Shown: positions 24,133 to 44,945 of the stretch, one piece after another
Numbering within the stretch: position 1 is the stretch's first letter
Layout of the letters: each line of letters starts with the position of its first letter
Source: a virus
Lineage: Duplodnaviria; Caudoviricetes
DNA length: 64,000 bases
Direction: 5' to 3' (one strand)
IMG/VR virus record: IMGVR_UViG_3300037400_003633
Coordinates: 1-64,000 of that record
The notes under the pieces: model-generated
Database searches by the model: none
Seen by the model: only the letters and a program-made list of their open reading frames with translations
Told to the model about the DNA's origin: nothing
Program-made: the position numbers and the translations under genes

Positions 24133-24207
24133 GTTTCTGTTTTTCTAATAGTCATTTAGATTGTAAGTGTTTCGAAATGGGCTGTCTGTGTTAGATAGCC
24201 CATTTTT
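24133..24207 (+). ncRNA. candidate 3'-UTR sRNA: anti-start-codon segment plus terminator
   Basis: 24153-24172 complementary to leader+ATG at 28375-28394; hairpin 24175-24205. Confidence 0.4.
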
Positions 24208-24341
24208 AGTGAATAAACGTTAAATATTGATATAACCCTGCAAGTTTTCTCAAAAAAGTTTGGTGGTTTCGATTTTTTTATGTAATTTTGCATCGTGAAA
24301 CCTGAGGATAGTCCGAGGGTACGCCTTAAAAAATTACAATT

Positions 24342-25433
24342 ATGGCAGCAAACATTGAGATTATTAACGGAGTTGCAAGTTTTGCAGAGAACAAGAAGAG
24401 TGGTCTGGCATGGCATGGTCTGGGTCAGCAGGTAGAGGGTGCTATGTTCGTCGATGAGGCTTTGAAAGCCTGTCACGCTGACTATGAGGTACAGTCACGT
24501 CCAGTGATGGTATTGACCCCTGAGATTCAGGAGCGCATGATGCGTGGTGAGATTATCACTGCCGACGAGTTGATTAACCTGACTATCCCCAACACTATGG
24601 CTACTGTACGTACCGACCTGAATCGTTCACTGGGTGTGGTATCTGACAAGTACGGTATCGTTCAGAATGCTGATGCTTTCCGCTTTGTGGATATGTTCTG
24701 TTCAGGTAAGTTCGCTGACAGACAGGACACTCCAGTTATCGAGACCTGTGGTGTACTGGGTCGTGGTGAGCGTGTATTCGTTACTGCTAAGTTCCCTGAG
24801 CCTGTTGTGCTGAACTCACGTCGTGATGACATTGTGGAAATGTACGTGGTATTCACCACCAGTCATGACGGTACTGGTTCAGTACGCTGCATGGTTACTC
24901 CGATTCGTGTGGTATGCAACAACACACTGAACCTTGCTATGCGTAACAACATTGGTCGCATTTGCTTCCGTCACAGCAGCAATGTAATGGATAGACTTGA
25001 CCTGTTGCAGCAGGAGAACGCTGAGTTTGCTTACAAAGCAATGAACGTGTACGAGGTTTACACCAATGGTCTGAAAGAGCAGTTTGACCACCTGCGTAAC
25101 ATCAAGGTCTCTGAAAAGGATTTGGATAACATCCTTGCTGAGGTTCTTCTCTCTCCTGAGGCTTTCAAGGCTTACAAGACCGACGGCATCAATTCCAGTG
25201 AGATTAAGACTCGTGGTCGTAACCTGTTCTTCAACGTCAAGCAGGCTATTGAGACTGGTATCGGTCAGGACAATCAGGAGACTGGCACTGCAATGTGGGC
25301 AATCAACGGTCTGACTACCTACTATCAGAATCAGGCTAATTTCAGCAACGACGAGATTAAGTTTGACTCTCTGATGCAGGGCAATGCCTACAACAAGATT
25401 CAGAAGGCTCAGGAGTTGCTAATGGCAGTCTAA
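24342..25433 (+). CDS. DUF932-domain protein (phage/plasmid-like, TIGR03299 type)
   Basis: AWHGLG, LGVVSDKYGIVQNADAF, IETCGVLGRGERVF, TSHDGTGS...TPIRVVCNNTL. Confidence 0.9.
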   Translation: MAANIEIINGVASFAENKKSGLAWHGLGQQVEGAMFVDEALKACHADYEVQSRPVMVLTPEIQERMMRGEIITADELINLTIPNTMATVRTDLNRSLGVVSDKYGIVQNADAFRFVDMFCSGKFADRQDTPVIETCGVLGRGERVFVTAKFPEPVVLNSRRDDIVEMYVVFTTSHDGTGSVRCMVTPIRVVCNNTLNLAMRNNIGRICFRHSSNVMDRLDLLQQENAEFAYKAMNVYEVYTNGLKEQFDHLRNIKVSEKDLDNILAEVLLSPEAFKAYKTDGINSSEIKTRGRNLFFNVKQAIETGIGQDNQETGTAMWAINGLTTYYQNQANFSNDEIKFDSLMQGNAYNKIQKAQELLMAV

Positions 25434-25442
25434 ACCACTACA

Positions 25443-25478
25443 GGAAAGCCCTACCTGACTTGGGTAGGGTTTTTCCTT
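25443..25478 (+). terminator. intrinsic terminator
   Basis: GGAAAGCCCTACC/GGTAGGGTTTTTCC. Confidence 0.75.
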
Positions 25479-25511
25479 TCACTCTAATAATAATATAACA
25501 CCATATAAACT

Positions 25512-25895
25512 ATGAGTAAGACAAAGAAGAAATATAAGGTCAGGATATATATTACTGACAATGTGCGTGGCAATATGGTTAATTCATTCCTGAGATTGGG
25601 CGTTTTACGCCTCCAGAACTCATTTGATGGTAAGAATGGTATATTAGCCATCTACGACGTTATTTGCCCAGCACAGGCGATTCTAGAGTTAAATACGCTG
25701 GGTATTAAGTATTTCCCACTGGATAACTATTCTGATTTTGTTATCGCCTGCCCTAACTGTGGCGAAAGAATTGATGATGATATGATACTTACTATATATG
25801 ATGAGAATCTGTTATCAGGTTATAACATTAATTGCCAGCGCCAGGACTGTGGTACACAAATGGCACAGGTAGTGTTCACGCCAGCAGATTTGTAA
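25512..25895 (+). CDS. hypothetical protein with C-terminal Zn-ribbon
   Basis: CPNCGE...CQRQDC. Confidence 0.65.
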   Translation: MSKTKKKYKVRIYITDNVRGNMVNSFLRLGVLRLQNSFDGKNGILAIYDVICPAQAILELNTLGIKYFPLDNYSDFVIACPNCGERIDDDMILTIYDENLLSGYNINCQRQDCGTQMAQVVFTPADL

Positions 25896-26014
25896 AGAAA
25901 CACGAAAAGTTTATATAAGGTGATAAGTTTTTCACGAAAAAATTTGGTAGATTAGATTTTTTTGTGTAATTTTGCACCGTCAAACATTTAATAACAACTT
26001 AAATAATTATAGTT

Positions 26015-26851
26015 ATGGAAAAATTTGTTTATGGTCACGAGTTGAAGAACATGGGTATTTCTTACTTAGGTAGTGTAGCCCAGTCCATGAAGATGCGTTT
26101 GTCTTACGAGAATGGCACAATGACGTATTGCCTTTATCTCGCACCTGCCGATATGTCAGGTTACAATGTATGTCCTAACAGTGAGCACTGCAAGCAGTTC
26201 TGCCTGAATGGTAGCGGTCAGAATAAGTGCGACCAGTTGAGCCGAGGTGTGGAGGGTAGCCTTATAAACCGTTCACGTATCAAGAAAACCCGTAAGTTCT
26301 ACGAGGACAGAGATACTTTCATGCGTATGCTTATTCATGAGTTGAGACGTTATCAAAAGGCTGCAAAGGAAAAGGGCATGGAATTTTCGGTACGTCTTAA
26401 TGGTACGTCTGATTTGTCACCAGTTCTTTTCAAAGACCCCGACACTGGTAAGAATATCTTGGAATTGTTCTCTGATGTTCAGTTCTACGACTATACCAAA
26501 GTCCCCTCACGTATCAAGTTGATGCAGCGTTATTCTAACTACGACCTTACGCTGTCTTACAATGGTTACAATTGGGATGACTGCGAAAAGTTCCTGAATG
26601 CAGGTGGCAAGGTTGCAGTTGTATTCTTTAGTGAGAAACTGCCTAAGAGTTTTCATGGCTATCCTATCACTGACGGTAACGGTTACGATATGCGTTATCT
26701 TGACCCTGCAAAGCATATCATTGGCTTGCACTATCATAAGACTGCCAATGACTACTATGTTGACGAAAAGGACGGTAGGAGAAAGTTTAGAGTGCCTGAA
26801 ACTCCCTTTGTAGTCAAGGTAAACAACGAATTTGTGGACTGGGTTTTCTAA
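26015..26851 (+). CDS. phage Gp88-like protein (radical-SAM-like Cys cluster)
   Basis: LYLAPA...VCPNSEHCKQFCL, VRLNGTSDL, QFYDYTK, YDLTLS, DGNGYDMRYLDP. Confidence 0.8.
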   Translation: MEKFVYGHELKNMGISYLGSVAQSMKMRLSYENGTMTYCLYLAPADMSGYNVCPNSEHCKQFCLNGSGQNKCDQLSRGVEGSLINRSRIKKTRKFYEDRDTFMRMLIHELRRYQKAAKEKGMEFSVRLNGTSDLSPVLFKDPDTGKNILELFSDVQFYDYTKVPSRIKLMQRYSNYDLTLSYNGYNWDDCEKFLNAGGKVAVVFFSEKLPKSFHGYPITDGNGYDMRYLDPAKHIIGLHYHKTANDYYVDEKDGRRKFRVPETPFVVKVNNEFVDWVF

Positions 26852-26938
26852 CCCTTTCCACAAAAAAGTTGAGAAAAAGTTTGGATATTCCAGTTTTTTT
26901 TCCTAACTTTGCAACGTCAAACAAAAACAATAAGAGTT

Positions 26939-27364
26939 ATGGATAAGAAGAATTTCTATGGCGACATTAAGACCTTGCACAAGCAGGTTGTTGCCGAGAT
27001 TAAGGCTTTAATGGTTGAGCATGGCAAGGCAGTTGTTGACCTTGCAGGTAGCCAAGCCCCTCACGCTTTTATCATTGGCGTTCCAGATTTTGACTGGGAT
27101 ATGGACTACATTGAGGCAGAAGTCCTGAGTGTTATCTTGGAGGATGATAAGATTAAGTTAGACATCAACTGGGGTATTGACAGCGAGGACTACCTTGAAG
27201 AAAATCCCAATGATAACGATGACATCAGTGATTTGTATTCAGTGGTTGAGGCTAACGACTTTGAGAAACTTGTTCCTTGCGCAGGAATCAGTAATGTGTA
27301 CGAATCTGTTTGGGAATATCTTACCTGCGGTTACAAAGGTGATAACGACGAAAATTTAAAGTGA
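26939..27364 (+). CDS. hypothetical early protein
   Basis: ATG after promoter leader. Confidence 0.7.
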   Translation: MDKKNFYGDIKTLHKQVVAEIKALMVEHGKAVVDLAGSQAPHAFIIGVPDFDWDMDYIEAEVLSVILEDDKIKLDINWGIDSEDYLEENPNDNDDISDLYSVVEANDFEKLVPCAGISNVYESVWEYLTCGYKGDNDENLK

Positions 27365-27365
27365 T

Positions 27366-27551
27366 ATGGCAAATTTCAATGTAAGTGTTGACATGACATT
27401 ATGTAAGATGGTGTCAGTCGAAGCGGAGAATGAACAGGAGGCTATGGATAAGGTAAACGAAATGATTGCCAACAATCCATACCAGTACACTAACAATTAC
27501 AGCCACTATGTGACCCACAGCGTGGTTGATGCAGAACCAGATAACGATTAA
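27366..27551 (+). CDS. small DpnD/PcfM-like protein
   Basis: VSVEAENEQEAMDKV. Confidence 0.5.
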   Translation: MANFNVSVDMTLCKMVSVEAENEQEAMDKVNEMIANNPYQYTNNYSHYVTHSVVDAEPDND

Positions 27552-27554
27552 TGT

Positions 27555-27941
27555 ATGAGACGTTTTAGTATATTCGCAATGGTAGTCCTGCTGTTGACGC
27601 TCTCTATAGCCTCTTATGGGCTGTCACAGGACGTTGAAAAGGTGAAGCCCTCACAACTGCAAGGGAAGTATATAACAGACGATTCTGAGGCGTTTTACAC
27701 GTTTACTGGTGACAGCCTCTATATCGATTGCGCTGGAAGTGGTTGCGGCATCCATGCCTATAGTCTAAGATACACCAGAAATGATTTCAGTGAGTGTGAC
27801 TTGGAAGAAACCGTAGTAGACTTAGACACAGGCAAGGAGTCCAAGGAGAGGCATCACTTTAAGTTCTTAAAGCATGGTGACAGGGTTTATGTTATAGTAG
27901 GTCACAGGACGGTAGACGTTATCGAGAAAGTTCTTCCATAA
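27555..27941 (+). CDS. exported hypothetical protein
   Basis: N-terminal signal peptide. Confidence 0.65.
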   Translation: MRRFSIFAMVVLLLTLSIASYGLSQDVEKVKPSQLQGKYITDDSEAFYTFTGDSLYIDCAGSGCGIHAYSLRYTRNDFSECDLEETVVDLDTGKESKERHHFKFLKHGDRVYVIVGHRTVDVIEKVLP

Positions 27942-28039
27942 CCATATTAAGTTTTTTTAAGAAATTAGAGTCACGAAAACTTGTGATTCTAATTTTTTTT
28001 TTATATCTTTGCACCGAATTAATTAAAACATTAAATTAA

Positions 28040-28357
28040 ATGGAACAGGACGAAAGTAAGATTTTTGAAAAGTTCTACGGCAAAAAGGTTTGTACGGAGA
28101 AACTAAATGTAGAGGGCTACAAGAAACCCATCCAGTTTGATATTTATGACGGTTATGCTGTTTGTCCAAGCTATAAGGGGCACAGGCTTGAAATGACCTA
28201 CCCACAGATGAAAGCGGTAAAGGACAGCAAGGAGTTTTCAGACGCTATTATGAACTACGTTAGTGGTATTACCAATGTAGATGAAATAACCGTCCTACAC
28301 GTCCTGATAGCCTTTGGTACGTTCTATAAGGATGGGGTGGAGATTCCAGCTAAATAA
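28040..28357 (+). CDS. hypothetical early protein
   Basis: 105-aa ORF after promoter. Confidence 0.65.
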   Translation: MEQDESKIFEKFYGKKVCTEKLNVEGYKKPIQFDIYDGYAVCPSYKGHRLEMTYPQMKAVKDSKEFSDAIMNYVSGITNVDEITVLHVLIAFGTFYKDGVEIPAK

Positions 28358-28391
28358 CGACAGAAACAATCTTAAAACACTTACAATTATT

Positions 28392-28565
28392 ATGGCAAGA
28401 AAATATACTATCCAACTTAATTATAACGCATCTATCATTGTAGATGTTACTGGTAACGATGAGGGTGAAGCATTGGAGAATGCAAGAAACATTGCTGAGG
28501 ATGCAGACATCAAGGAATTTACTATCGGAGCAGAGAGGGAAAGTCAGATACTCAGGCAGAGTTAG
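28392..28565 (+). CDS. small DpnD/PcfM-like protein
   Basis: VDVTGNDEGEALENA; paralog of 27366. Confidence 0.5.
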   Translation: MARKYTIQLNYNASIIVDVTGNDEGEALENARNIAEDADIKEFTIGAERESQILRQS

Positions 28566-28635
28566 TTTTTCATAGTTTTTTATTGTTTTATTGTTAGTTA
28601 TTCAGGGGGTGCATAAAAAGATGCACCCTTTTTTT
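28566..28635 (+). ncRNA. candidate 3'-UTR sRNA: anti-start-codon segment plus terminator
   Basis: Reverse complement reads AACAATAAAACAATAAAAAACTATGAAAAA; hairpin 28607-28628 + T run. Confidence 0.4.
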
Positions 28636-28714
28636 GTGTTTTTCCATGAAAAAATTTGGTAGATTCGATTTTTTTATGTAATTTTGCCATGTCAAACAAT
28701 AAACAATAAGAGTT

Positions 28715-29059
28715 ATGAAGAAAGAAACGTATTTTAAAAAGGCTGACGAACTTTACGACAGCATTATTCCTACACAGAAGGAAATTCGTAAGAAGTGTGA
28801 GACATTCATCAAGAAATCATTACAGGAACATAATGGTAAGATTGATTTCTCTGATTGCGATGGCTCTGTATCAGTAACCTACGATGGTGGCAACCATCCT
28901 GAATATGCCAGCAATGCTTTCTCTATGGTTGAGGGTATTAGCCTTGACAAAAATGGAAATATCATCTTACAGACAGAGGATTGCTCTGAATATGGTATTG
29001 AGAATATCAACTGGGAAGAAGTTTACTGGATTGCCTCATTCATCAAAGAAAATTTCTAA
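28715..29059 (+). CDS. hypothetical early protein
   Basis: 114-aa ORF after promoter. Confidence 0.7.
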   Translation: MKKETYFKKADELYDSIIPTQKEIRKKCETFIKKSLQEHNGKIDFSDCDGSVSVTYDGGNHPEYASNAFSMVEGISLDKNGNIILQTEDCSEYGIENINWEEVYWIASFIKENF

Positions 29060-29134
29060 AAAAGTTCAGGAAATTTTTGGTTATTCCAAATATTTTATCT
29101 AACTTTGCAGTGTAAACAACAAAACAATAGAGTT

Positions 29135-29638
29135 ATGAGTACAAACAGTTGCGTTATCATTAAGTTGAGACAAGAGGACATAGGGAAACCTATTAAGTTC
29201 GACAAGGCATTATTGCCTGACGGAGTGAAGATTGAAGATTGGGTGCTGAAAGACCCTAATACTGGTAATATTTGGCATGATGAGAGTACCAAGGAGAAGT
29301 CAAAGACCATTATTCCCACTGGTAAGTATATCGGTATCTATTGTCACTGGGATGGTCACAAAAGTAGTGTTGGTAATGCCCTTAAAACAAGGTTCTCTAA
29401 CTATATTCATGCGCTCAATCTACTTGCAGGTGGTTGGTGCAGTGCAATCAGCAAAGGCAGCATAAAGCACTATGCCAATAGAAAGGGTGAAAGATGGGGC
29501 ATTATTCAGCCTGTGTTTGGTGACACACCGCAGGAAATCATGAAGAATATAGACTTTCAGTATTGTTACCTGCTTGATGAAAAGGGTTGGCGTTGCTATG
29601 ACACTAATTACAAGGCAGTGAGATTCTTGAAGTATTAA
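29135..29638 (+). CDS. conserved hypothetical phage protein
   Basis: GIYCHWDG motif. Confidence 0.7.
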   Translation: MSTNSCVIIKLRQEDIGKPIKFDKALLPDGVKIEDWVLKDPNTGNIWHDESTKEKSKTIIPTGKYIGIYCHWDGHKSSVGNALKTRFSNYIHALNLLAGGWCSAISKGSIKHYANRKGERWGIIQPVFGDTPQEIMKNIDFQYCYLLDEKGWRCYDTNYKAVRFLKY

Positions 29639-29679
29639 TCGGGTTGGGGAGCAATCCCCACCCACAAAAATAGAATATT

Positions 29680-29901
29680 ATGGATAGATATACTACATCA
29701 ACAGGATATGAGGTTTCTGAACGAATGAACGGTCTCGATATATATGACGAAAATGGTGATTACATCTGTGAGTTGCACGGTAGAACTCTCGACGAATACA
29801 GAAACGAGGAAGAGGCTATCGACGAAGATGCACTTGAAGGTGACATCAAGAACCAACTGGAAGTAGAGGCGTTTATTGACTACCAGTCAGGTTACTGCTA
29901 A
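29680..29901 (+). CDS. acidic hypothetical protein
   Basis: 73-aa ORF. Confidence 0.6.
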   Translation: MDRYTTSTGYEVSERMNGLDIYDENGDYICELHGRTLDEYRNEEEAIDEDALEGDIKNQLEVEAFIDYQSGYC

Positions 29902-29986
29902 AAAATACTGGTAAAAACTTGTATATCTCGAAAATTTTATATATCTTTGCCTTGTGAGGTAATTATATATTAAAATCAAAGATATT

Positions 29987-30112
29987 ATGAGTGGAAACAA
30001 AAGACTAATGCGTAGTGTAGAACACCTGAGAGTGATTGCTACGCCAACGAGAGTGCGAGAGAATGAGGACGGCACAAAGGCCCAACTCTATCGAATAAAC
30101 CCGATGAGGTGA
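29987..30112 (+). CDS. small hypothetical peptide (41 aa)
   Basis: ORF read by hand after promoter 29918. Confidence 0.4.
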   Translation: MSGNKRLMRSVEHLRVIATPTRVRENEDGTKAQLYRINPMR

Positions 30113-30127
30113 CGCACTAAAATGCCT

Positions 30128-30258
30128 GGGGCTATATGACAGGACTGCCGACGTTACGTCTCCTGAAGCCCTTTAAACTACCCTAACGTGGATTGGGTGT
30201 CCACACTAATCAATTAAGGAAATGGAGCGACAAGAACGACCACCGCCCTGATGCAGGG
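30128..30258 (+). ncRNA. candidate structured ncRNA
   Basis: Nested stems GGGCT/AGCCC, CAGGA/TCCTG, GACGT/ACGTC, then GTGGAT/GTCCAC and CCCTG/CAGGG; GC-rich, noncoding. Confidence 0.4.
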
Positions 30259-30317
30259 ATATAGGTTTTAAATGAATATTATAATAAGTTTGCGACATAA
30301 TAAAAGATAAAAATGTC

Positions 30318-30391
30318 TGGATAGTAGCTCAGTTGGTTAGAGCACTATGGCATTTGCCTATGAGTCGCAGGTTCGAGTCCTGCCTGTCCAG
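30318..30391 (+). tRNA. tRNA-like element with non-canonical anticodon arm (undetermined/pseudo)
   Basis: Acceptor TGGATAG/CTGTCCA, D arm GCTC-AGTTGGTTA-GAGC, T arm GCAGG-TTCGAGT-CCTGC; anticodon arm does not give a 5-bp stem/7-nt loop. Confidence 0.7.
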
Positions 30392-30581
30392 CAATGCGTC
30401 GTGATGATGCCTGTTTTTCCATAATGAAATTGTTAGGTTGAGGGAAGCGTATCCAGATGGGTGCGCTTCCATTGTTTATGTTAAAAATACTATAAGGTTA
30501 TAAGTTTTTCTCGAAAAAATTTGGTAGATTCGATTTTTTTATCTAATTTTGCCACGTCAAACAATAAAAACAATAAGAGTT

Positions 30582-31330: not shown

Positions 31331-31615
31331 ATGGAAACAATAGTAATCAAAGGTGTCAAATGTTTGCTTCCTTGCAAGGTGTTATCACTTGGTCTGGATA
31401 TGCAGTGCCATCATGTTATTACAAAAAGCACAATACTTTCTGTGAACGAGTCAGAAGATAAACTTATCATTGAGAATGATGGCATAAAGATTCGTTTACG
31501 CATGAATGACTTAAATGACTTTTATCCAGATACTACGGAGAACTATAATATTCTGAAATCGCAATGTGATGAAGAATATAGCCAGTGGCATAATAGAATT
31601 GTGAAAAATAATTAA
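31331..31615 (+). CDS. hypothetical early protein
   Basis: ATG after promoter 31271. Confidence 0.65.
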   Translation: METIVIKGVKCLLPCKVLSLGLDMQCHHVITKSTILSVNESEDKLIIENDGIKIRLRMNDLNDFYPDTTENYNILKSQCDEEYSQWHNRIVKNN

Positions 31616-32349: not shown

Positions 32350-32535
32350 AAATTGACTGTTATGTTCTATCTCTTTCTTATATTAAGTTTTGTGGTAATG
32401 GTTGTGGATGAGTATGTCCACAACCCCCAATTCAGGAAGAAAATAAAAAACATTAAAGAATAATCGCTGAAAAATTTGGATATTCCAAAAAAAATATGTA
32501 TCTTTGCACTGTCAAACAATTAAACAATAATAACA

Positions 32536-33303: not shown

Positions 33304-33387
33304 TATCATATTGTAAGATTCGTGATTTGTGTTTTTCATGGTAGTGCCATTCCAGTCAGTGATGATAGGGGTGGCTTTTTTTTATAT

Positions 33388-33422: not shown

Positions 33423-33524
33423 GGGGGAGTGTCGAAACTGGTAGCCGAGGGGGACTTAAAATCCCCTGCCCATTAGTATTACACGAAAGTAAGTAGCGTG
33501 AGGGTTCGAGTCCCTCCTCCCCTA
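33423..33524 (+). tRNA. tRNA-Leu(TAA) with 33-nt variable region
   Basis: Acceptor GGGGGAG/CTCCCCT, D arm TCG/CGA, anticodon stem GGGGA/TCCCC loop CTTAAAA, T arm GAGGG-TTCGAGT-CCCTC, discriminator A; 102 nt. Confidence 0.85.
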
Positions 33525-33610: not shown

Positions 33611-33898
33611 ATGAAAAGGTACAAAGTTAGAATCACAGACAGAAACGGCTTCTACAAGGAGTTCGATGATGGCAGTATCATTGGTGGGCACTATGGTGAG
33701 CCTATCGTAGTTACTATGCTGCTTAATGAGAATGAATTTAAGGCTCTTACAATGTTTATGGGTCAGGTGAGCGAATTACGTCACGATGTGGCTGCATTTA
33801 ACCTATCCCAGTGTTGTGTGCTGACACCTTGGCATAAGAGGGTGATGTGCAAATACTTTAAGGCTTTCACAGAACAGGTAACAATAGAAATACTATAA
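33611..33898 (+). CDS. hypothetical early protein
   Basis: 95-aa ORF after promoter. Confidence 0.65.
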   Translation: MKRYKVRITDRNGFYKEFDDGSIIGGHYGEPIVVTMLLNENEFKALTMFMGQVSELRHDVAAFNLSQCCVLTPWHKRVMCKYFKAFTEQVTIEIL

Positions 33899-35269: not shown

Positions 35270-35345
35270 TTCTTCCATATCTTAAAGTTTAGTTGTTGAC
35301 AGGAGGACTGGGTAATGCATAACACCTAGTCTTCCATCTTTTTTA
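35270..35345 (+). ncRNA. candidate 3'-UTR sRNA: anti-start-codon segment plus terminator
   Basis: Reverse complement of 35272-35300 reads GTCAACAACTAAACTTTAAGATATGGAAG; hairpin 35302-35335. Confidence 0.4.
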
Positions 35346-36308: not shown

Positions 36309-36408
36309 GGCTGTAAGTATCTTAATATATATTAAAAGATTGGGGTATTATTTGGATATTCCAATCTTTTTATGTAATTTTGCCATGTCAAACAAAACAT
36401 TTAAGATT

Positions 36409-38082: not shown

Positions 38083-38103
38083 AAACATCAAAAGAATTGA
38101 AAT

Positions 38104-38910: not shown

Positions 38911-38920
38911 AAGTATAACT

Positions 38921-39121
38921 ATGGGTAAGCAGAGAATGAAAGTGTATAAGGATAAGGAGTTCAGAGACCTCCTTACATCAAATGGGTATCGGTTGAACAG
39001 AAGTTCTGGAGACCACCACATTTACGTCAATGCGACTGGAAGACATGTCTCAGTTAAGTTCCCAGTGAACCCATGTATTGCGAGAAGACTAATAAAGGAA
39101 TATAACTTAATAACAACTTAA
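38921..39121 (+). CDS. hicA: HicA-like mRNA interferase (orphan)
   Basis: LLTSNGYRLNRSSGDHHIYVNATGRHVSV, HicA G-x-H pattern, 66 aa; no HicB-like neighbour. Confidence 0.65.
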   Translation: MGKQRMKVYKDKEFRDLLTSNGYRLNRSSGDHHIYVNATGRHVSVKFPVNPCIARRLIKEYNLITT

Positions 39122-39123
39122 AT

Positions 39124-39363
39124 ATGGATAAGGCAAAGTTAACCCAGTTACGGGCACAAGTGAACAGGCTGTTCAGAGGCAGACCAGAGGGAAGTGTAAT
39201 ACAGTTAATGCTGGACGGTAAGGAATATAGTCATTATGAGATTCCTGAGAATCATTACGTCACTAGAGACAGCAAACCACCTATAGACTGGTTGAATGAG
39301 GCTGTATGCTTCGCAGAACTAAGAGGCATTAAAGGAAATTTCAGCCTCAGGATAAAACCCTGA
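39124..39363 (+). CDS. hypothetical early protein
   Basis: 79-aa ORF. Confidence 0.6.
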   Translation: MDKAKLTQLRAQVNRLFRGRPEGSVIQLMLDGKEYSHYEIPENHYVTRDSKPPIDWLNEAVCFAELRGIKGNFSLRIKP

Positions 39364-39373
39364 GAAGACCATA

Positions 39374-39482
39374 AGGGAGAAAGAGCATGTTGGCGTTGCC
39401 AGTGGTGTTCCCACTAAAGAACCCAGCAAGATTCAGGTAGCTCCTGATGCGCTGGAAAGTAGGTTCGAATCCTTGCTCCCTT
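39374..39482 (+). ncRNA. tRNA-like structured RNA (non-canonical cloverleaf)
   Basis: AGGGAG/CTCCCT closing stem, hairpins TGGC/GCCA, AGTGG/CCACT, CCAGC..TCAGG/CCTGA..GCTGG and T-loop AGG-TTCGAAT-CCT. Confidence 0.6.
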
Positions 39483-39640
39483 TCAAGCGATTTCAATTCT
39501 TCTGATTTATTCATTTTGCATTTACCCAGTGGCTGTCGGGAGACACCTGCTGGGCTTTTTTATTAAAAATCATTAAAAAGTTTTGTAGTCTGAAATAAAA
39601 TACCTAACTTTGCCACGTCAAACGATAAAACATTAGGATT

Positions 39641-39868
39641 ATGGATATGACAATTGAAGAAGTAAGGAACAGCCTCATTGATGGTTTGGAGGATTGCTAT
39701 ACTCCAACTCAGATTGAGTTAATAGACCTTCGTTTAGAAGAGATTGCAAAGGAAGAACACCTTACACTTGAAGACCTTGATTACTATTGCACAGCAAATT
39801 CAAGTGAGATGTTTACTTGTATTTTTAACTATAAGGAGTTTGATAAGAAGAACTTTGAAGTAGATTAG
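39641..39868 (+). CDS. acidic hypothetical early protein
   Basis: 75-aa ORF after promoter. Confidence 0.65.
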   Translation: MDMTIEEVRNSLIDGLEDCYTPTQIELIDLRLEEIAKEEHLTLEDLDYYCTANSSEMFTCIFNYKEFDKKNFEVD

Positions 39869-39885
39869 ACTTAAATAAGTACAAA
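39868..39885 (+). repeat. polar 18-bp motif, copy 6
   Basis: GACTTAAATAAGTACAAA at stop codon. Confidence 0.85.
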
Positions 39886-39905
39886 GTCGTATGATTTAAA
39901 AAGAA

Positions 39906-40343
39906 ATGTATATGGAAGCGTATATAGACAAGTATAACAAGGCACTGGGTGAGTTCAGGAACGCAAAGCACGCAATGATGAATGAGATTGTCACTATGAT
40001 AAAGACAATCGCCTGCAAACCCATACACATAGGTAACACGTATTATTATTACGTTAATCATAATGGCGTGGATGTACCTGCGTATTGCAATGAGAATGAC
40101 TATAATGAGAGCAATCCTGAGTTCCTGCCAGTATATGATGAGGAGGAAACCTATGACTTTGGTTGGGTAAGATTCGAGGAATGCTGTCGATTATTCGAGG
40201 TCATCAGGAGAGTGTTAATGAATAGCGATACTACAAAAGAAATGGCTGAACGTTATAAACAATATACGCAAGGTTGGGCATATATACCACCTCAAGACCT
40301 TGGCAAATACGAGAAAGCGTTTAAGCAGTTTTATAATAAATAA
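39906..40343 (+). CDS. hypothetical early protein
   Basis: 145-aa ORF. Confidence 0.65.
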   Translation: MYMEAYIDKYNKALGEFRNAKHAMMNEIVTMIKTIACKPIHIGNTYYYYVNHNGVDVPAYCNENDYNESNPEFLPVYDEEETYDFGWVRFEECCRLFEVIRRVLMNSDTTKEMAERYKQYTQGWAYIPPQDLGKYEKAFKQFYNK

Positions 40344-40357
40344 TCAATATAAGATAT

Positions 40358-40567
40358 ATGGATGTAAGGATTAAATTCGACGCTGACCTGATTATTTCAG
40401 GTGAGACAATGCAAGAAGTCAGGAGTAAGTTCGAGAGCATGCAACTGTTCTCACAGGAGGCAAAGGATTCTGGCGTAGAGTTCAGCGAGATACAACTGGT
40501 TGAGGATTCTGAGACCTACGACGATTTGAGGCACGAGTATGACCACTGTTATGACAGGAACGAGTGA
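40358..40567 (+). CDS. acidic hypothetical protein
   Basis: 69-aa ORF. Confidence 0.6.
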   Translation: MDVRIKFDADLIISGETMQEVRSKFESMQLFSQEAKDSGVEFSEIQLVEDSETYDDLRHEYDHCYDRNE

Positions 40568-40659
40568 TTGTTAATAAACAATAAAAAACTGGGCAGTTTC
40601 TTTTCTGTTCCAGTTTTTTTCTGTAATTTTGCCACGTCAAACTTAAATAACAAACAGAT

Positions 40660-41082
40660 ATGGAAGCAAATGTAACAGGATTTATCAGGAAATGGAACGG
40701 TAGAACATTACAGGATGACGGCAGTAGTGTTTCGAAAGAGTTTCATTCATTTCAGGTGGCGTTCATTAACGCCATGCGTAAGATTGCCACTGCGTTAGGT
40801 GGTGAAGTTGTAGGACAGTCCTATGGTCACTACGATATGAGTGGATTCATCAGGAGAGGCGACAAGTATGTGTATTTCAGTTACAGTAATGGCTGTTGTC
40901 GTGGTGGAAGAACATTCGTAAACCTGAAAGGACAGTGGGATGACTGGCATTCGCCATTACTTATCAGAACAGCAGCAGACAGCAAGGATTTTCGTGGAGG
41001 CTGTAATCATTTTACATCATTCGAGAAGTGTCAAGAACTGATAGACAGCCTACTAAATACAGAACATCGTAGAGTATGGTAA
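40660..41082 (+). CDS. conserved hypothetical Bacteroidota phage protein
   Basis: GHYDMSGFI...YVYFS...LIRTA...DFRGGCNHF. Confidence 0.7.
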   Translation: MEANVTGFIRKWNGRTLQDDGSSVSKEFHSFQVAFINAMRKIATALGGEVVGQSYGHYDMSGFIRRGDKYVYFSYSNGCCRGGRTFVNLKGQWDDWHSPLLIRTAADSKDFRGGCNHFTSFEKCQELIDSLLNTEHRRVW

Positions 41083-41210
41083 TAACATTAAAATAATAAA
41101 AGCTATGAGAAAAGTATTGTATTAAAAATCATTAAAAGATGAGACTATCTCTTGGTAGTCTCAATTTTTTTATGTAATTTTGCAGCGTCAAACAACAAAC
41201 AATTAAGGTT

Positions 41211-41936
41211 ATGGATAAGAACAAAGAGAGTTTAATCAAGGCGATTGCCAAGGCTATCAAGGAGAGTGCTAAGGGAATCAATGGCAATGTTTATTGCTAT
41301 GCCAACGTTCCCATTGAACTGCGGAATTGGGGTGCAGGATGGGGCAACAAGTGGAAGTGGTCATCTTCCGAGATTAAGGTGGGTAACGAAACCTACAAGT
41401 TCACTGACAAGGAAGTAACTGACCAAGAAATGATTAGCATTGCAAAGCAGGCTTTGGAGTTAAGTGGCTGCAAGGGCAAGGTTCTCTATGATGAATGTGG
41501 CGATGGCTATTGGATTTCCAAGACCTATAGTTTCAATGGCATCAAGGTATATGGTGAACCCTGCAATGAGTTCAAGGAACTGAATAAGATGCTTGCCAAG
41601 TATGGTAATAAGACAATAGGTGAGCAGGATGTGTTCCACGTCAATGTGTGTGGCAAACGTTCATCTTGGAGTGATAGCGGTCACGAAAGTTATCTATGCT
41701 ATATGCCTAAGGTTTGTGCCAATATCATTGACTATATTAGGCACAATAGACTAAGAGGTTGGAAAGTGTGCATCAGCATGGAAGAGTATTTCAGTCATGG
41801 TGACGAAATGGACTATCGCTGCGCACAACACCAAGAAAGCGAATGGTACGGATGCAGGGGTGTGATGTTGGTGACTGACATCAAGAACACCAAGGGTGAA
41901 CCAAAACTGCATAAGACCTTTATGGATTTCAGTTGA
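41211..41936 (+). CDS. hypothetical early protein
   Basis: 241-aa ORF after promoter. Confidence 0.75.
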   Translation: MDKNKESLIKAIAKAIKESAKGINGNVYCYANVPIELRNWGAGWGNKWKWSSSEIKVGNETYKFTDKEVTDQEMISIAKQALELSGCKGKVLYDECGDGYWISKTYSFNGIKVYGEPCNEFKELNKMLAKYGNKTIGEQDVFHVNVCGKRSSWSDSGHESYLCYMPKVCANIIDYIRHNRLRGWKVCISMEEYFSHGDEMDYRCAQHQESEWYGCRGVMLVTDIKNTKGEPKLHKTFMDFS

Positions 41937-42014
41937 GTTTTCTTTCTAAACCATAATGATAATTTTAAATGATGTTAAAGTTTGGGGTAGTCTTTTGGCT
42001 ATCCCGACTTTTTT
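41937..42014 (+). ncRNA. candidate 3'-UTR sRNA antisense to sigma-factor start
   Basis: 41951-41973 pairs 14+7 nt with 47254-47276 including AUG; followed by hairpin 41978-42012. Confidence 0.45.
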
Positions 42015-42044
42015 GTGTAATTTTGCTACCGAATTAAAACATTA

Positions 42045-42338
42045 ATGGTTATGGATAAGAAAAATACGTTTTACATTGTGGTTGTGTTCTATGACGGACT
42101 TGGCTACACATTGCAGGAGGATGAAAAGGTACACCTATTCTTCCACTACGGGATAAAAGGCTACAAAAAGTTAGCCTACGCTATCAAGAAAGCAAATAGA
42201 CTGGCTTATACCTACGTCAATGAAAAGACCTGCATATTCAAGGTAGAAGAAGATGAGAGAGTTTCCTGTGACCAATATCGTGACTGGTGCAAGGATAAGA
42301 ATAGACTGGTTTATGAAAATAAAGGATTTAAGTTATGA
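42045..42338 (+). CDS. hypothetical early protein
   Basis: 97-aa ORF. Confidence 0.65.
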   Translation: MVMDKKNTFYIVVVFYDGLGYTLQEDEKVHLFFHYGIKGYKKLAYAIKKANRLAYTYVNEKTCIFKVEEDERVSCDQYRDWCKDKNRLVYENKGFKL

Positions 42339-42592
42339 TAGCAATTAATGATTTCAAGTTAGTGGCTGATTTTAATGACTGGTCACAAACTCACGACCCA
42401 GACAAACTCTATTGTATTACAAAGGAGAATGGAGAGGAATTGTTTGATGTGTACGAAGATGATTTCATTACTATGATTGACCTTGGTATCGTCAATAGCG
42501 AGGGATTTTATTACCTGCTTGGTAATCCTACTGATGACCAAATTAGGGAGTATGCAAAGATGTATGGTATTCACTGGACTGATTTAGACTAA
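42335..42592 (+). CDS. hypothetical early protein
   Basis: 85-aa ORF. Confidence 0.6.
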   Translation: MIAINDFKLVADFNDWSQTHDPDKLYCITKENGEELFDVYEDDFITMIDLGIVNSEGFYYLLGNPTDDQIREYAKMYGIHWTDLD

Positions 42593-42596
42593 GATT

Positions 42597-42824
42597 ATGA
42601 AAAGGAGAAAGATAGTAAGGCGAAAGAACATCTATGATGTTGACTGGTGGAGAGGTGACTGGTGTTATCGTACAACCACTGGCTGCGACTGGGAAGCAGT
42701 ACTGGAGTGCAAACGTGCTGCGAAGTTAATGGGTGAGAAAATAACCTATGAGAAGACTGGAGTAAAGGAAGATGTGTACTATACTGGAGGACGAGGTGGT
42801 TCACCAATATTTATGGCACGTTAA
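42597..42824 (+). CDS. hypothetical early protein
   Basis: 75-aa ORF. Confidence 0.6.
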   Translation: MKRRKIVRRKNIYDVDWWRGDWCYRTTTGCDWEAVLECKRAAKLMGEKITYEKTGVKEDVYYTGGRGGSPIFMAR

Positions 42825-42853
42825 AATATTAACAATTAAAATGCAAATGAATT

Positions 42854-43150
42854 ATGGAAATTAGAAGAATGAAACGAGAGCAAATTAGAAGGAAACTGTC
42901 AGCACTATTGATGCACACTGACGAGCAGCATCCAATGGAATGTCGGTATGTGGTAGGAGACGCTTATTCTTGTGGTTTAAGCACGCTGGAAATGCCTACT
43001 ATCACCAGTATGTTTCAAGAGCCATCAGAGGGCATTATTTGGTTTCAGTTTGAAGGTGAACAAGAGCCAAGAGAGTTTGACGATATGGTTAGGTCAGACC
43101 TTAATGAACTACTGGAAGGATTAAAAGAAGATATGTTATTAACAATTTAA
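42854..43150 (+). CDS. hypothetical early protein
   Basis: 98-aa ORF. Confidence 0.65.
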   Translation: MEIRRMKREQIRRKLSALLMHTDEQHPMECRYVVGDAYSCGLSTLEMPTITSMFQEPSEGIIWFQFEGEQEPREFDDMVRSDLNELLEGLKEDMLLTI

Positions 43151-43162
43151 TGCAAATGAATT

Positions 43163-43564
43163 ATGATTGAAGGAAGTATTGGACTGGGAGATTTCCTTAG
43201 AGGAGAAAACTCTATCAGTTGTGAGATTGGTTGTGTTACTGGTATGCGACAAAGCACTGGTTCACGGAAGGGTATGATTTACAAGATTGGTATTAACTGG
43301 TTCTTCGCTGACGAGATTAGCCACGACTGGTGGGGAGAACTACAACACAAGGTAGGTGTAGGCAAACGATACAACTACAAAAAGCCTATTAAGGTTATAT
43401 ACAAGAAAAGAACCTATAAGGCTATAAGAGTTGAGTTTGAGGAAAACTACCACGTTATACTGGAAGATAAGGACGGTGCATTAGTCTATGAACACATTTA
43501 TTCCTTACCAACAAAGACATTAGAACGGCTGGTTAACCAATATGATAAAGAACAAATTAAATAA
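43163..43564 (+). CDS. hypothetical early protein
   Basis: 133-aa ORF. Confidence 0.65.
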   Translation: MIEGSIGLGDFLRGENSISCEIGCVTGMRQSTGSRKGMIYKIGINWFFADEISHDWWGELQHKVGVGKRYNYKKPIKVIYKKRTYKAIRVEFEENYHVILEDKDGALVYEHIYSLPTKTLERLVNQYDKEQIK

Positions 43565-43571
43565 AATAACT

Positions 43572-43922
43572 ATGAATAAAAAAGAATTGAAAGCACATCT
43601 TATCATTATGATAGGTGAGTTAAAAGGGGAGATTGATAACGAGTCAGGTTGCTTTGATGAGATTGCAACATCAGCACTAAAGAACGTATTAGGCTGCAAT
43701 GAACTGGTTGATACTGATAGCAATGACATACTGGTACAACTGGATAAAAGTATTGAGGACGATGGGCTACTGGTTGATGCAGTATTTTTGTCCAGTAATA
43801 ACAAGGTGTTATTTAGCGTTACTGATGCAGAAGATGAAATGATTGATAGTGCTGAACTTGCTGACATATCAAGAGAGAACATCATAAAATTATTAGATGA
43901 AATATATAAAATGTGTGAATAA
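43572..43922 (+). CDS. acidic hypothetical early protein
   Basis: ATG 43572. Confidence 0.65.
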   Translation: MNKKELKAHLIIMIGELKGEIDNESGCFDEIATSALKNVLGCNELVDTDSNDILVQLDKSIEDDGLLVDAVFLSSNNKVLFSVTDAEDEMIDSAELADISRENIIKLLDEIYKMCE

Positions 43923-44004
43923 AACAAAAATAATTGGGATATTATTTGGGTATTACATTTTTTCTTTGTAACTTTGCAACGTCAAACAATTAAAATTAGA
44001 AGAT

Positions 44005-44259
44005 ATGATTAACGCAGAACAAGCAAAGCAGTACACTAAGAAGTTCGAACCAAGTAAGGAGTTGGTAGAACAAGTAGAAAAACAAATCAAGAGAGGTGAG
44101 CGTCACATTCACGTCTACACTACTCGCTATTGTCGTGATTATGCAGAGGACTTTGCAAAGTATTGCAGGGAGCAGGGTTTCACCAATGCACGTATTGAGG
44201 ACATCTACAACCGCAGAACGGGTGAAAGAGGTGGCAATTATCTTGCTATTGACCTTTAA
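44005..44259 (+). CDS. hypothetical early protein
   Basis: 84-aa ORF after promoter. Confidence 0.65.
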   Translation: MINAEQAKQYTKKFEPSKELVEQVEKQIKRGERHIHVYTTRYCRDYAEDFAKYCREQGFTNARIEDIYNRRTGERGGNYLAIDL

Positions 44260-44327
44260 GACTACAATGCCCACTATCAAGGTGGTGGTGGGCATTTAAC
44301 AACTAACAATTAAACATTAGAAGAATT

Positions 44328-44837
44328 ATGGTAAACAAAGACAAAGTAAGGCAGATTTTCAGTATTGAACTATTGGAGGACAATGCCCAATATTTCAATC
44401 ATTATACTGATATGATTAAGTGCGGTCATCCCTGGAACGTTGTGTGCGAGTTAAGAAAGGTCAGCGAAAACGCAGAGTCAGACCTTGACCCTTACACCTA
44501 TGAGCAGATACTGGAGAGTGCCAAACAATTTAATGAGCGTATCGTATTCGACAATGGTGAATACTTGCTGACTGCCAATGACGCTATCATAGTCCTTTAC
44601 CAGTATGGTGATGTGGACGTATACGACTGGACTGGAGATAAACTGGAAATAAACGATGAAGTTATATGGCTCGACCCCGATGATGATGCAAGAGATTTAC
44701 GCAGGGTGTGGACTATCTATGATATAGTTAACGAAGAACTGGTTAAGATTGCTGACGATGCATCAGAAGCAGAGGTTGCACCAAATGAACTGGTTAAAGC
44801 CAGTAACGTGCTACACGTTGACATCATAATCAAATAG
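44328..44837 (+). CDS. hypothetical early protein
   Basis: 169-aa ORF ending TAG. Confidence 0.7.
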   Translation: MVNKDKVRQIFSIELLEDNAQYFNHYTDMIKCGHPWNVVCELRKVSENAESDLDPYTYEQILESAKQFNERIVFDNGEYLLTANDAIIVLYQYGDVDVYDWTGDKLEINDEVIWLDPDDDARDLRRVWTIYDIVNEELVKIADDASEAEVAPNELVKASNVLHVDIIIK

Positions 44838-44854
44838 ACTTAAATAAGTACAAA
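44837..44854 (+). repeat. polar 18-bp motif, copy 7
   Basis: GACTTAAATAAGTACAAA. Confidence 0.85.
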
Positions 44855-44907
44855 GTACTATATGAACTAGAGCTTTGTCATACTATCAATATTTTAAATG
44901 AATAAGT

Positions 44908-44945
44908 AAACCAGTATTAGTCGTGAGATTGGTACTGGTTTTATT
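44908..44945 (+). terminator. intrinsic terminator ending the early array
   Basis: AAACCAGTATTAGTC-GTGA-GATTGGTACTGGTTT + T run. Confidence 0.8.

Follow-up and report, generated by a model that had tools for sequence, protein, structure and literature searches.

Two T-rich spacers in the early region of a jumbo phage of Bacteroidota, at 41937-41982 and 44866-44907, and probably also those at 35270 and 28566, are best read from sequence comparison as functional antisense segments that would control translation, a reading to which we assign a probability of about 0.55. The window, the whole 64,000-nt stretch that was analysed, is the early region of this uncultured, lytic-looking phage from bovine rumen. 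Between 22.9 and 48 kb it forms an array of same-strand cassettes, each with a promoter, a conserved A/C-rich leader of the form GTCAAACAATAAAAC...TTATG, one or more genes, a spacer and a terminator; at least 25 of the promoters are canonical Bacteroidota promoters (TTTG-N19-21-TAnnTTTG). The region is highly mosaic, with adjacent genes 27-100% identical between relatives, and gene order near sigma and helicase varies among them. The 17-mer GACTTAAATAAGTACAA, present in six exact + strand copies against 0.59 expected, possibly serves as a promoter of phage type or marks the edge of a module; it lies immediately 5′ of a tRNA-like RNA in related phage L093, and metatranscriptome contig joints coincide with its copies. 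The two best-supported elements and their predicted targets are as follows.

41937-41982, + strand: U-rich 3′ spacer after a 241-aa gene (41211-41936); core 41951-41973
41982-42014, + strand: terminator hairpin and U-run capping the 41937 element, with the next promoter's -33 TTTG box in the loop
44837-44853, + strand: exact copy of GACTTAAATAAGTACAA, directly 5′ of the 44866 element
44866-44907, + strand: spacer before the 44908 hairpin; core 44874-44909
44908-44941, + strand: 15-bp terminator hairpin capping the 44866 element
45593-45636, + strand: start region of a UvrD-like helicase, predicted target, with 5′UTR from just past the -7 box and AUG at 45625
47242-47285, + strand: start region of the sigma factor (Sigma70 r1.2/r2/r4), predicted target, with AUG at 47274 and leader motif ATCATTTAAAATTA

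Over the core 41951-41973, 21 of 23 positions are reverse-complementary to the sigma start region, with pairing of 14 + 7 bp against 47254-47276. There are exactly three copies of the 14-mer ATCATTTAAAATTA, one in each of the helicase and sigma leaders and an inverted one at 41960-41973; the predicted duplex of the 41937 element has a ΔG of -20.6 kcal/mol with sigma and -18.8 kcal/mol with helicase. In reverse complement, the core 44874-44909 reads as the helicase 5′UTR, AUG and first codons, and the 44866 element, on the same strand as helicase and 716 nt 5′ of its start, pairs with it at -22.0 kcal/mol, covering the AUG. Identity scoring gave z values of 4.6 for the 41937 element and 4.4 for the 44866 element (3.6 in further scoring). 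Strong pairing with sigma or helicase is confined to 2 of 11 elements, at -19 to -22 kcal/mol vs. -5 to -12 kcal/mol for the other nine.

Seed-target covariation in relatives, put forward in the earlier note as a check, was positive for both targets. For helicase, nine phages whose helicases are 59-78% identical and whose leaders differ were compared in an own-vs-other test that searched each phage's own upstream 10 kb. The own-genome antisense match of the helicase start region ranked first in six of the nine, and the summed own-genome match was reached by 0 of 20,000 permutations (p < 1e-4). Energies agreed (own -21.0 vs. cross -15.0 ± 3.3 kcal/mol, p ~1e-4), and the duplex spans the AUG in 8/9 phages. 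For sigma, tested in six phages, the corresponding energies were -20.2 and -15.0 kcal/mol (exact permutation p = 0.0014), and whole-region scoring gave p = 0.014. Four control ortholog families showed p = 0.17-0.84 by energy and 0.05-0.75 by whole-region scoring; reverse-only and complement-only helicase controls gave p > 0.96, and an internal helicase 44-mer p = 0.09. Complementarity extends from 5-13 nt past the -7 box to about +9, so that the transcribed leader is covered and the promoter is not. The helicase matches fall in T-rich pre-terminator elements upstream in the same genome, at sites that vary by phage: behind gene X, behind a tRNA-like RNA or ~700 nt 5′ of helicase. In L011, an element at 473-493 homologous to that at 41937 matches the phage's own helicase start region, and at the position equivalent to that of the 44866 element, both L175 (at 9237-9265) and L011 (before stem 3398) carry an element matching the helicase leader of the same phage; L093 and L174 gave no convincing helicase match. 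Antisense control as proposed for sigma and helicase is thus backed by own-genome covariation with four null control families, but this backing does not extend to the other loci.

Two further spacers mirror the leader common to early genes rather than one specific start.

35270-35335, + strand: generic early leader with its AUG in inverted copy (35270-35301), then a terminator hairpin (35302-35335)
28566-28631, + strand: 67%-T spacer mirroring the early-leader core AACAATAAAACAATAA plus AUG, identity z 2.6; terminator at 28604-28631

The 35270 unit scored z 4.7 by identity (p ≤ 0.01) and z -3.8 by RNAduplex against shuffles; a homologous unit stands in another context in L009, before stem 3384. 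Four starts, at 33611 (z 6.0), 44328, 35424 and 32536, find their best antisense match in the 28566 spacer. Metatranscriptome contigs terminate at 35305 and 35329, and one spans 28071-28596.

The earlier note had described a network of about ten such elements, and at this breadth the proposal did not hold. When the best RNAduplex energy of ten loci against 141 start regions was compared with dinucleotide shuffles, only 35270, 44838 and 28566 exceeded the shuffles, 41937 was intermediate (z -1.4), and 6 of the 10 were no better than shuffled sequence, an outcome that the earlier note had itself named as counting against its proposal. A second score, the identity of the spacer reverse complement to start regions relative to dinucleotide shuffles, gave a collective Stouffer z of 5.7 for antisense, compared with 1.6 for the sense and -0.5 for the internal-coding control; in relatives, the values were 8.4 for antisense and 0.3 for sense. 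The excess comes from 35270, 41937, 44838, 34335 and 28566, weakly from 30393 and 39486; identity scoring found no extra complementarity at 24133, 27942, 33301, 34841 and 36309. The best antisense match is intergenic for 63% of all start regions, and leaders and spacers are low-complexity and A/T-rich. All six complementarities quoted previously are present as described, but one target, the ATG at 28392, lies in frame within ORF 28332-28565 and is not a documented start. What is left of the network is two members with specific, covariation-backed targets, two mirrors of the generic leader, and three to six AT-rich loci at chance level. The marginal and chance-level loci are listed below.

30393-30470, + strand: trailer immediately after tRNA-Lys (30318-30392), with TTTTTCCATAATG and terminator 30443-30470; identity z 2.3, p 0.05
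39486-39554, + strand: trailer immediately after a conserved tRNA-like RNA (about 39375-39485), with terminator; identity z 2.2, marginal
32350-32426, + strand: T-rich spacer without CAT, hairpin without U-run; identity z 1.7, marginal
24132-24202, + strand: T-rich CAT spacer and terminator; RNAduplex z 0.1, identity z -0.1, chance level
27942-27998, + strand: 17-nt CAT/T-run spacer and 18-bp hairpin; identity z 0.0, chance level
33304-33380, + strand: T-rich spacer with two CATs and hairpin, tRNA gene downstream; RNAduplex z 0.6, identity z -0.8, chance level

The pairing proposed between 30411 and the starts at 31331 and 31690 exists but is marginal relative to shuffles, and the spacer of the minus-strand locus at 59199 is short and not T-rich. 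The other T-rich spacers could belong to the family as weaker members, or be no more than AT-rich pre-terminator or promoter-upstream sequence.

As a class, T-rich, CAT-bearing spacers before terminators are real. Among 17 stop-to-terminator spacers of at least 15 nt, 11 are T-rich (38-67% T vs. 27.7% background), and eight of these contain CAT, a weak excess within the window (p = 0.03-0.06, uncorrected). In eight related phages, 15 of 16 T-rich pre-terminator windows carry CAT; the 23 CATs, most of them in the form CATA, the mirror of TATG, exceed the 13.6 ± 2.5 of dinucleotide shuffles (p = 0.0003). Most clade terminators (73/92) instead follow a short A-rich spacer of conserved form. Predicted folds of all ten units bear out the U-rich seed and terminator hairpin architecture suggested earlier: a single-stranded 5′ part precedes a terminal hairpin, and the pairing part is U/G-rich, single-stranded and directly before that hairpin.

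These features suggest a mechanism in which antisense segments would be carried at the 3′ ends of early phage transcripts, just before the intrinsic terminator. The U/G-rich segment would pair with the entire short 5′UTR, the AUG and the first 2-3 codons of a target mRNA; as Bacteroidota initiate on unstructured A-rich leaders lacking a Shine-Dalgarno (SD) sequence, a duplex of 20-35 bp that spans the AUG should keep ribosomes from initiating. The UvrD-like helicase and the sigma factor, whose leaders have a motif in common within each phage, would be the specific targets, and 35270 and 28566 would act on ~20 early mRNAs with one common leader. The acting form could be the full mRNA or a ~60-90 nt piece freed by processing, and for the two units behind a tRNA or tRNA-like gene, tRNA 3′ processing would make the 5′ end. 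We infer a stable RNA species, pairing in vivo and repression as the sign of the effect. Rumen metatranscriptome contigs contain the spacers and end at or in the terminators, a weak hint at expression, as these are assembled contigs that possibly include DNA.

Several other origins for these sequences were weighed. They could be decayed inverted leader fragments from cassette shuffling, kept alike by gene conversion and without RNA function, with AT-rich composition mimicking a family. The mosaic early region, contig joints at repeated motifs, non-syntenic element positions and the chance-level scores of most loci fit such a neutral by-product, as does the concerted evolution of leaders within each genome (sense own-vs-cross p = 0.0005-0.04), given that gene conversion could in principle maintain an inverted copy. 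We nevertheless hold it unlikely: the inverted fragments never include the adjoining, highly conserved -7 box, the match being limited to the transcribed leader; control families with strong sense concerted evolution give no antisense effect; the copies are imperfect over ~30 nt and gapped, and hence a poor substrate for gene conversion; every copy is on the transcribed strand directly before a terminator; and the excess of CAT in CATA context recurs in relatives. At most listed loci, the T-rich tract might instead belong to a fused terminator-promoter module, as an A/T-rich upstream element or in tuning termination or RNA decay, and because leaders are A-rich, resemblance to an anti-leader would be chance. 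The terminator loop carries the next promoter's -33 box, so that relative to this promoter the spacer lies at roughly -45 to -90, and both the conserved A-rich spacers of the clade terminators and the five loci without excess complementarity are in keeping with such a module. It leaves the CAT enrichment and the own-genome specificity of helicase and sigma unexplained, however, and the 44866-44941 unit has no host-type promoter directly 3′ of it; we consider this account decidedly unlikely.

Incidental RNA complementarity is also conceivable if the leader motif and its inverted copies were operator or looping sites of a phage DNA-binding regulator, or recombination repeats. The 14-mer is direct in two leaders and inverted ~20 nt 5′ of the next promoter's -33 box, its TTTAAA core is palindromic, the sigma/helicase gene order differs among relatives, and operators would likewise covary with their protein across phages. 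Yet gapped matches of 30-37 nt that extend over the AUG and first codons are atypical of an operator; the sequences are entirely different between close relatives, the inverted arrangement was not seen among the contigs examined (coverage was poor), and the terminator after each element fits an RNA and is irrelevant to a DNA site, making this possibility very unlikely. That small minus-strand genes really begin at the reverse complements, which resemble a leader plus ATG, is scarcely credible. ORFs starting at the CATs measure 2-37 aa (mostly 2-11 aa) and enter the antisense of the upstream gene, and the sole longer one, of 55 aa, is antisense to the tRNA-like RNA; no minus-strand TTTG/TAnnTTTG promoter adjoins any element, its expected position being taken by the terminator hairpin. 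The earlier observation that the elements lack an opposite-strand gene or promoter was therefore upheld.

The antisense reading has parallels, and the earlier statement that no such array had been described was too strong: P1/P7 c4, Bacteroides FopS/GibS and the icaR 3′UTR are on record. In Staphylococcus aureus icaR mRNA, a 3′UTR motif pairs with the ribosome-binding region and blocks initiation (PMC3868564). That pairing is within the same mRNA, whereas the best partners here are starts of other genes kilobases downstream, not the cassette's own leader. The 3′ external transcribed spacer RNA 3′ETS-leuZ of E. coli is a tRNA trailer ending in the operon terminator, and it serves as a sponge for sRNAs rather than acting on start regions. 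Units 30393-30470 and 39486-39554 match this layout, but both are only marginally complementary to any start region.

FopS and GibS of Bacteroides thetaiotaomicron are multicopy seed-plus-terminator sRNAs with many paralogs, one of them 3′UTR-derived, that base-pair at translation initiation regions and act as translational repressors in a Bacteroidota host with SD-less initiation (PMC11697453). FopS is chromosomal, with its own sigma-ABfr promoters and one conserved seed, whereas the phage elements mostly lack a promoter of their own, lie in 3′UTRs or tRNA trailers and differ in their seeds; no Rfam match was found for them. The c4 antisense RNA of phages P1 and P7 (immI) provides a case in which related phages carry matched variants of regulator and target (PMC12197685). 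Like the elements here, c4 (to which the CI RNA of P4 is related) is phage-encoded, on the same strand and upstream of its target; its sequence complements the ribosome-binding region of a phage gene further downstream, whose translation c4 blocks. It is cut from its precursor by RNase P, and two units here follow a tRNA or tRNA-like gene. Neither sequence nor Rfam comparison linked the elements to c4 RNA; c4 pairs by loops of a folded RNA and the phage elements by an unstructured 5′ stretch before the terminator. The setting also differs, with a Bacteroidota host of SD-less initiation, a lytic-looking jumbo phage rather than an immunity-system phage, several elements per genome, and helicase and sigma factor as targets. 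Judged by sequence, the elements most likely control the translation of sigma and helicase as same-strand antisense RNAs, in the manner of P1/P7 c4 or Bacteroides FopS.

The window is the first 64 kb of an IMG/VR record that is 86.6 kb long, with an estimated completeness of 29% (CheckV), and many metagenomes of the bovine gut and rumen contain near-identical DNA. Relatives of its UvrD-like helicase (59–78% identity) lie on contigs of up to 428 kb, placing the phage in a jumbo phage clade. A pattern scan found more than 25 + strand promoters of the form TTTG-N17-23-TAnnTTTG, each followed by a conserved leader (GTCAAACAATAAAAC...TTATG), and this promoter grammar indicates that the host is a member of the Bacteroidota; BACON and BspA-type LRR domains are present in window proteins. 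Almost every gene between 22.9 and 48 kb lies on the + strand, in cassettes ordered as promoter, leader, one to several genes, spacer, and intrinsic terminator. At many sites in 23031–47233, terminator and promoter are fused, with the –33 TTTG box in the terminator loop and the U-run forming the promoter spacer.

Eight related phage loci (L009, L010, L011, L092, L093, L174, L175, and L176), obtained via helicase homologs, have promoters and leaders like those of the window in strongly shuffled cassettes. A megablast search with 21 kb against a phage collection gave no match, and a single-protein scan of IMG/VR found no relatives of the phage sigma factor. The helicase relatives in IMG/VR and JGI were too distant (≤57% identity over the full length, and one 72% fragment that was too short) and uninformative, because their short leaders overlap the promoter and the antisense matches are minus-strand promoter boxes.

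All stretches of the window running from a stop codon or a tRNA end to a terminator were taken as spacers, named here by start coordinate. The T-rich, CAT-containing spacers described in the earlier note, whose reverse complement reads like a leader plus ATG, do exist: 11 of the 17 spacers of at least 15 nt are T-rich (38–67% T vs. a background of 27.7%), and eight of these 11 contain CAT. In the window alone the CAT enrichment is weak (p = 0.03–0.06 against mono- and dinucleotide shuffles, uncorrected). Among the 16 T-rich windows of the relatives, a sample independent of the discovery set, 15 contain CAT, with 23 CATs in total vs. 13.6 ± 2.5 in dinucleotide shuffles (p = 0.0003), mostly as CATA, which mirrors the TATG context typical of starts. 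The excess is replicated in the relatives, so the resemblance to an inverted start is a feature of the clade. Of the 92 + strand terminators in the early regions of the window and its eight relatives, 19 follow a T-rich tract, and the rest follow an A-rich spacer that is short, conserved, and of the type GTTAAAAGATATTAAAG. In 10 of 10 units the predicted fold is a strong terminal hairpin preceded by an unstructured 5′ part (fold z –2.2 to –5.5); the hairpin at 32350 has no U-run. Short-word BLAST of whole units against the relatives returned few matches, so at the sequence level the units do not form a conserved repeat family, and a search of the elements and a tRNA-like RNA against Rfam 15, at gathering and E-value thresholds, gave tRNA matches only and no C4 family.

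All six complementarities between spacers and start regions quoted in the earlier note were recovered exactly; one target ATG, at 28392, lies in frame inside the ORF 28332–28565 and is not a known start. Hybridization energies (RNAduplex, best of 141 start regions) were compared with those of dinucleotide-shuffled spacers, a comparison on which the earlier note had staked its proposal. Six of the ten loci failed to exceed the shuffles, and only 35270 (z = –3.8), 44838 (z = –3.2), and 28566 (z = –1.9) stood out. True inverted copies are detected more sensitively by identity-based local alignment of the reverse-complemented spacers with all start regions, and here the antisense score of 16 spacers exceeded that of shuffles (Stouffer z = 5.7), with no excess in the sense comparison (z = 1.6) or in antisense comparison with internal coding windows (z = –0.5). 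Individual scores were clearest for 35270 (z = 4.7), 41937 (z = 4.6), and 44838 (z = 4.4), with a less strong excess for 34335 (z = 3.3), a spacer absent from the original list, and for 28566 (z = 2.6), followed by 30393 (z = 2.3) and 39486 (z = 2.2). Spacers 34841 and 36309 were at chance in this alignment, as were 24133, 27942, and 33301, three loci of the earlier note, whose observation is confirmed in part.

The best partners of the spacers are the starts of other genes: sigma for 41937, helicase for 44838, the start at 36408 for 35270, and the start at 33611 for 28566. Pairing with a spacer's own leader was rejected on this ground. An intergenic location of the best antisense match was dropped as an argument, the background being already 63%. 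The reverse complement of 35270–35301 is a recognizable copy of the early leader, a conserved A/C-rich 5′UTR common to about 20 early mRNAs, from the first transcribed bases through the ATG, and 28566, which mirrors the core of the same leader, is the top antisense partner for at least four of the early starts.

Strong pairing with the sigma and helicase start regions was confined to two of the 11 window elements: 41937 (–20.6 kcal/mol with sigma and –18.8 kcal/mol with helicase) and 44838, with the segment 44866–44907 (–22.0 kcal/mol with helicase), the other nine giving –5 to –11 kcal/mol with both targets. There are just three occurrences of the 14-mer ATCATTTAAAATTA, one in each of the helicase and sigma leaders and an inverted one at 41960–41973, and within each phage sigma and helicase have a leader motif in common. 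The elements lie on the same strand as their targets and upstream of them, by 0.7–8 kb for helicase and, for sigma of the window, by 5.3 kb.

The helicase 5′UTRs differ among the nine phages, and each helicase start region (–32 to +12), reverse-complemented, was compared with the upstream 10 kb of every phage. The phage's own genome gave the best antisense match in six of nine cases and the second best in one; the diagonal sum was reached by none of 20,000 permutations (p below 1e-4), and the result persisted with the whole early region scanned and the target region masked. In pre-terminator windows, own pairs averaged –21.0 kcal/mol vs. –15.0 ± 3.3 kcal/mol for cross pairs (p about 1e-4), with the AUG inside the predicted duplex in eight of the nine phages. 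Reverse-only and complement-only controls gave p > 0.96, and an internal helicase 44-mer gave p = 0.09. For the sigma start, compared in six phages, the corresponding energies were –20.2 vs. –15.0 kcal/mol (exact p = 0.0014), and an unbiased scan gave p = 0.014. Four control ortholog families (241-aa, 97-aa, and 219-aa proteins and a family designated gene X) showed no antisense effect (p = 0.17–0.84 by energy, 0.05–0.75 by whole-region score). Seed-target covariation, which the earlier note had proposed as a check, is thus found for helicase and sigma and not in the controls; this evidence concerns the sigma and helicase elements, the early leader being conserved across the clade.

We propose that 41937–41982 and 44866–44907 are functional same-strand antisense segments, at the 3′ ends of early transcripts or released from them, that would block initiation on the sigma and helicase mRNAs by pairing with their 5′UTR and AUG. 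Such a block should be effective because the host picks its start sites on unstructured A-rich leaders. We put the probability of a real RNA-level function, for at least these two dedicated elements, at about 0.55. Elements 35270 and 28566 may act likewise on the shared early leader. Judged from sequence comparison, support for putative antisense control is strong for sigma and helicase and moderate for the two generic early-leader mirrors; of the silencing network of about ten members suggested in the earlier note, about half of the loci are unsupported, as is its targeting of host mRNAs.

It is doubtful that the U/G-rich pre-terminator tails as a class (at about 20% of clade terminators) form a phage-wide post-transcriptional timing system. 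In such a system, an antisense module would stand at the end of each early transcript; generic modules would silence the early mRNAs with the common leader, roughly 20 in number, and dedicated modules would gate translation of sigma and the replication helicase, setting the early-to-middle switch. Some modules might silence host mRNAs as well, since host leaders have the same A-rich grammar.

Other readings would leave the complementarity without a role in translation. The elements could be neutral inverted leader fragments whose similarity is maintained by gene conversion, which we consider unlikely; the leaders of the control families have clear sense similarity within a genome and nonetheless no antisense effect. 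The complementarity starts 5–13 nt past the –7 box and stops near +9, and so covers the transcribed 5′UTR, not the promoter. A DNA-level site for a regulator or recombinase is very unlikely in our estimate. A promoter-upstream or terminator-tuning function, with leader resemblance arising by chance, is quite unlikely as an overall account and likely the truth for several of the weaker loci.

Minus-strand mini-genes, which the earlier note had named among the cases against its own reading, are hardly conceivable. A promoter scan found no minus-strand promoter near any element, in agreement with the original description of loci free of an opposite-strand gene or promoter, and the minus-strand ORFs opened by the CATs are 2–37 aa long, the single 55-aa exception being antisense to the tRNA-like RNA; the mini-gene reading was dismissed for these reasons. 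A leader HMM run on the minus strand gave only weak, composition-driven matches (E 6.5–48 genome-wide), which were set aside as evidence.

Contigs 90–99% identical to the early cassettes are present in three rumen or sheep-gut metatranscriptome runs, and some extend across the spacers of 28566 and 35270, breaking off at or within the terminators, at positions 28596, 35305, and 35329. These are assembled contigs, carrying no strand, end, abundance, or size information and possibly including DNA, and are at most compatible with the antisense-RNA model.

Unit 30393 directly follows tRNA-Lys and unit 39486 directly follows the tRNA-like RNA, a layout that would allow release by tRNA 3′ processing; c4-type phage antisense RNAs are likewise freed from a precursor by enzymes of tRNA processing. 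Features of this kind, and gene X, are located as follows.

Window about 39375–39485 (+ strand), L009 3050–3175, and L093 1825–1940: conserved tRNA-like RNA of about 115 nt.
L009 3180–3420: tandem array of three units behind the tRNA-like RNA, each a T-rich CAT tract plus a U-run hairpin.
Window 33423–33524 (+ strand): second tRNA gene, 102 nt, 47.3 bits against Rfam tRNA at the E-value threshold.
L009 5829–6560, L010 6206–6889, L092 1362–2075, L011 581–1267, and L093 3456–4160: gene X, a conserved 230-aa family.

The tRNA-like RNA, recognized by neither ARAGORN nor Rfam, has a GGGAGA segment on its 5′ side, AAAGACCC internally, and on its 3′ side the T-loop GGTTCGAAyCC with GCTCCC behind it; T-rich CAT units come after this RNA in all three phages. 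Unit 2 of the L009 array is the best antisense match of the L009 helicase start region, and unit 3 is homologous to the window 35270 element. The 102-nt tRNA gene, missed by ARAGORN and by the gathering-threshold scan, presumably contains an insertion or intron. Gene X has no recorded Pfam match, and no homolog was found in the 86.6-kb record; two phages have it beside sigma. A T-rich CAT tail comes after it in every case, and in four of the five phages this tail is predicted to pair with the sigma and helicase starts.

Further sites in the window are of other kinds.

22151, 36845, 39868, 44837, 44954, and 48079 (+ strand): six exact same-orientation copies of the 17-mer GACTTAAATAAGTACAA.
About 48230–48480 (+ strand): ~75-nt unit rich in CCAGT/ACCAG, present in about three tandem copies that each contain a hairpin (CCTGATGCCTGACAATCAGG).
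29945–30317 (+ strand): host-type promoter with –7 box TATATCTTTGCC, then about 350 nt of non-coding sequence.
About 50000–50060 (+ strand): run of C- and G-tracts of the type GGTGGTGGGGACACCCCCCCCC...

At up to three mismatches the 17-mer occurs 10 times in the window vs. 0.59 expected by chance; in L093 the motif precedes the tRNA-like RNA. Its copies in the window are the exact points at which contigs of other rumen samples join or diverge (joints 36864>39864, 39883>44832, and 29662>39865), so module boundaries are marked by this motif, which may double as a phage-specific promoter. The ~75-nt repeats are candidate iterons or a candidate origin, in the 1 kb of non-coding sequence behind the sigma gene. 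The ~350 nt behind the host-type promoter are G+C-richer, strongly structured, and run into tRNA-Lys, and related metatranscriptome contigs cover 29945–30317 with many indels. The C- and G-tracts lie upstream of a GIY-YIG/HNH gene, in a non-coding region of otherwise 28–35% G+C.

Large Bacteroidota phages dominate gut and rumen viromes. To our knowledge, very little is known about the timing of their gene expression, and almost nothing about RNA-based control in phages of hosts without Shine-Dalgarno pairing. If our reading is true, a covarying antisense element directed at a phage's own sigma and helicase would be a compact translational switch for the early-to-middle transition and would show a regulatory capacity of phage mRNA 3′ ends. 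The cross-phage mismatches (own –21 vs. cross –15 kcal/mol) would serve as natural specificity controls for Bacteroides reporters.

Three known systems resemble the window elements, none with a sequence or Rfam relation to them. The icaR 3′UTR is a bacterial 3′UTR able to block its own start region (PMC3868564), whereas the best partners of the window elements are other genes. Closest in form are FopS/GibS of Bacteroides thetaiotaomicron, RNAs of about 65–70 nt with a single-stranded 5′ seed and a terminator, which comprise fourteen paralogs, one of them 3′UTR-derived, and repress translation at start regions (PMC11697453); the window units likewise have an unstructured 5′ part and a terminal hairpin. 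In logic, c4, an antisense RNA of phages P1 and P7, comes closest: it is encoded on the same strand upstream of its target and is aimed at the ribosome-binding region, and regulator and target differ between related phages in a matched way (PMC12197685). The window elements too are upstream, on the same strand, and complementary to a start region including the AUG, and the own-versus-cross tests point to matched element-target changes between related phages.
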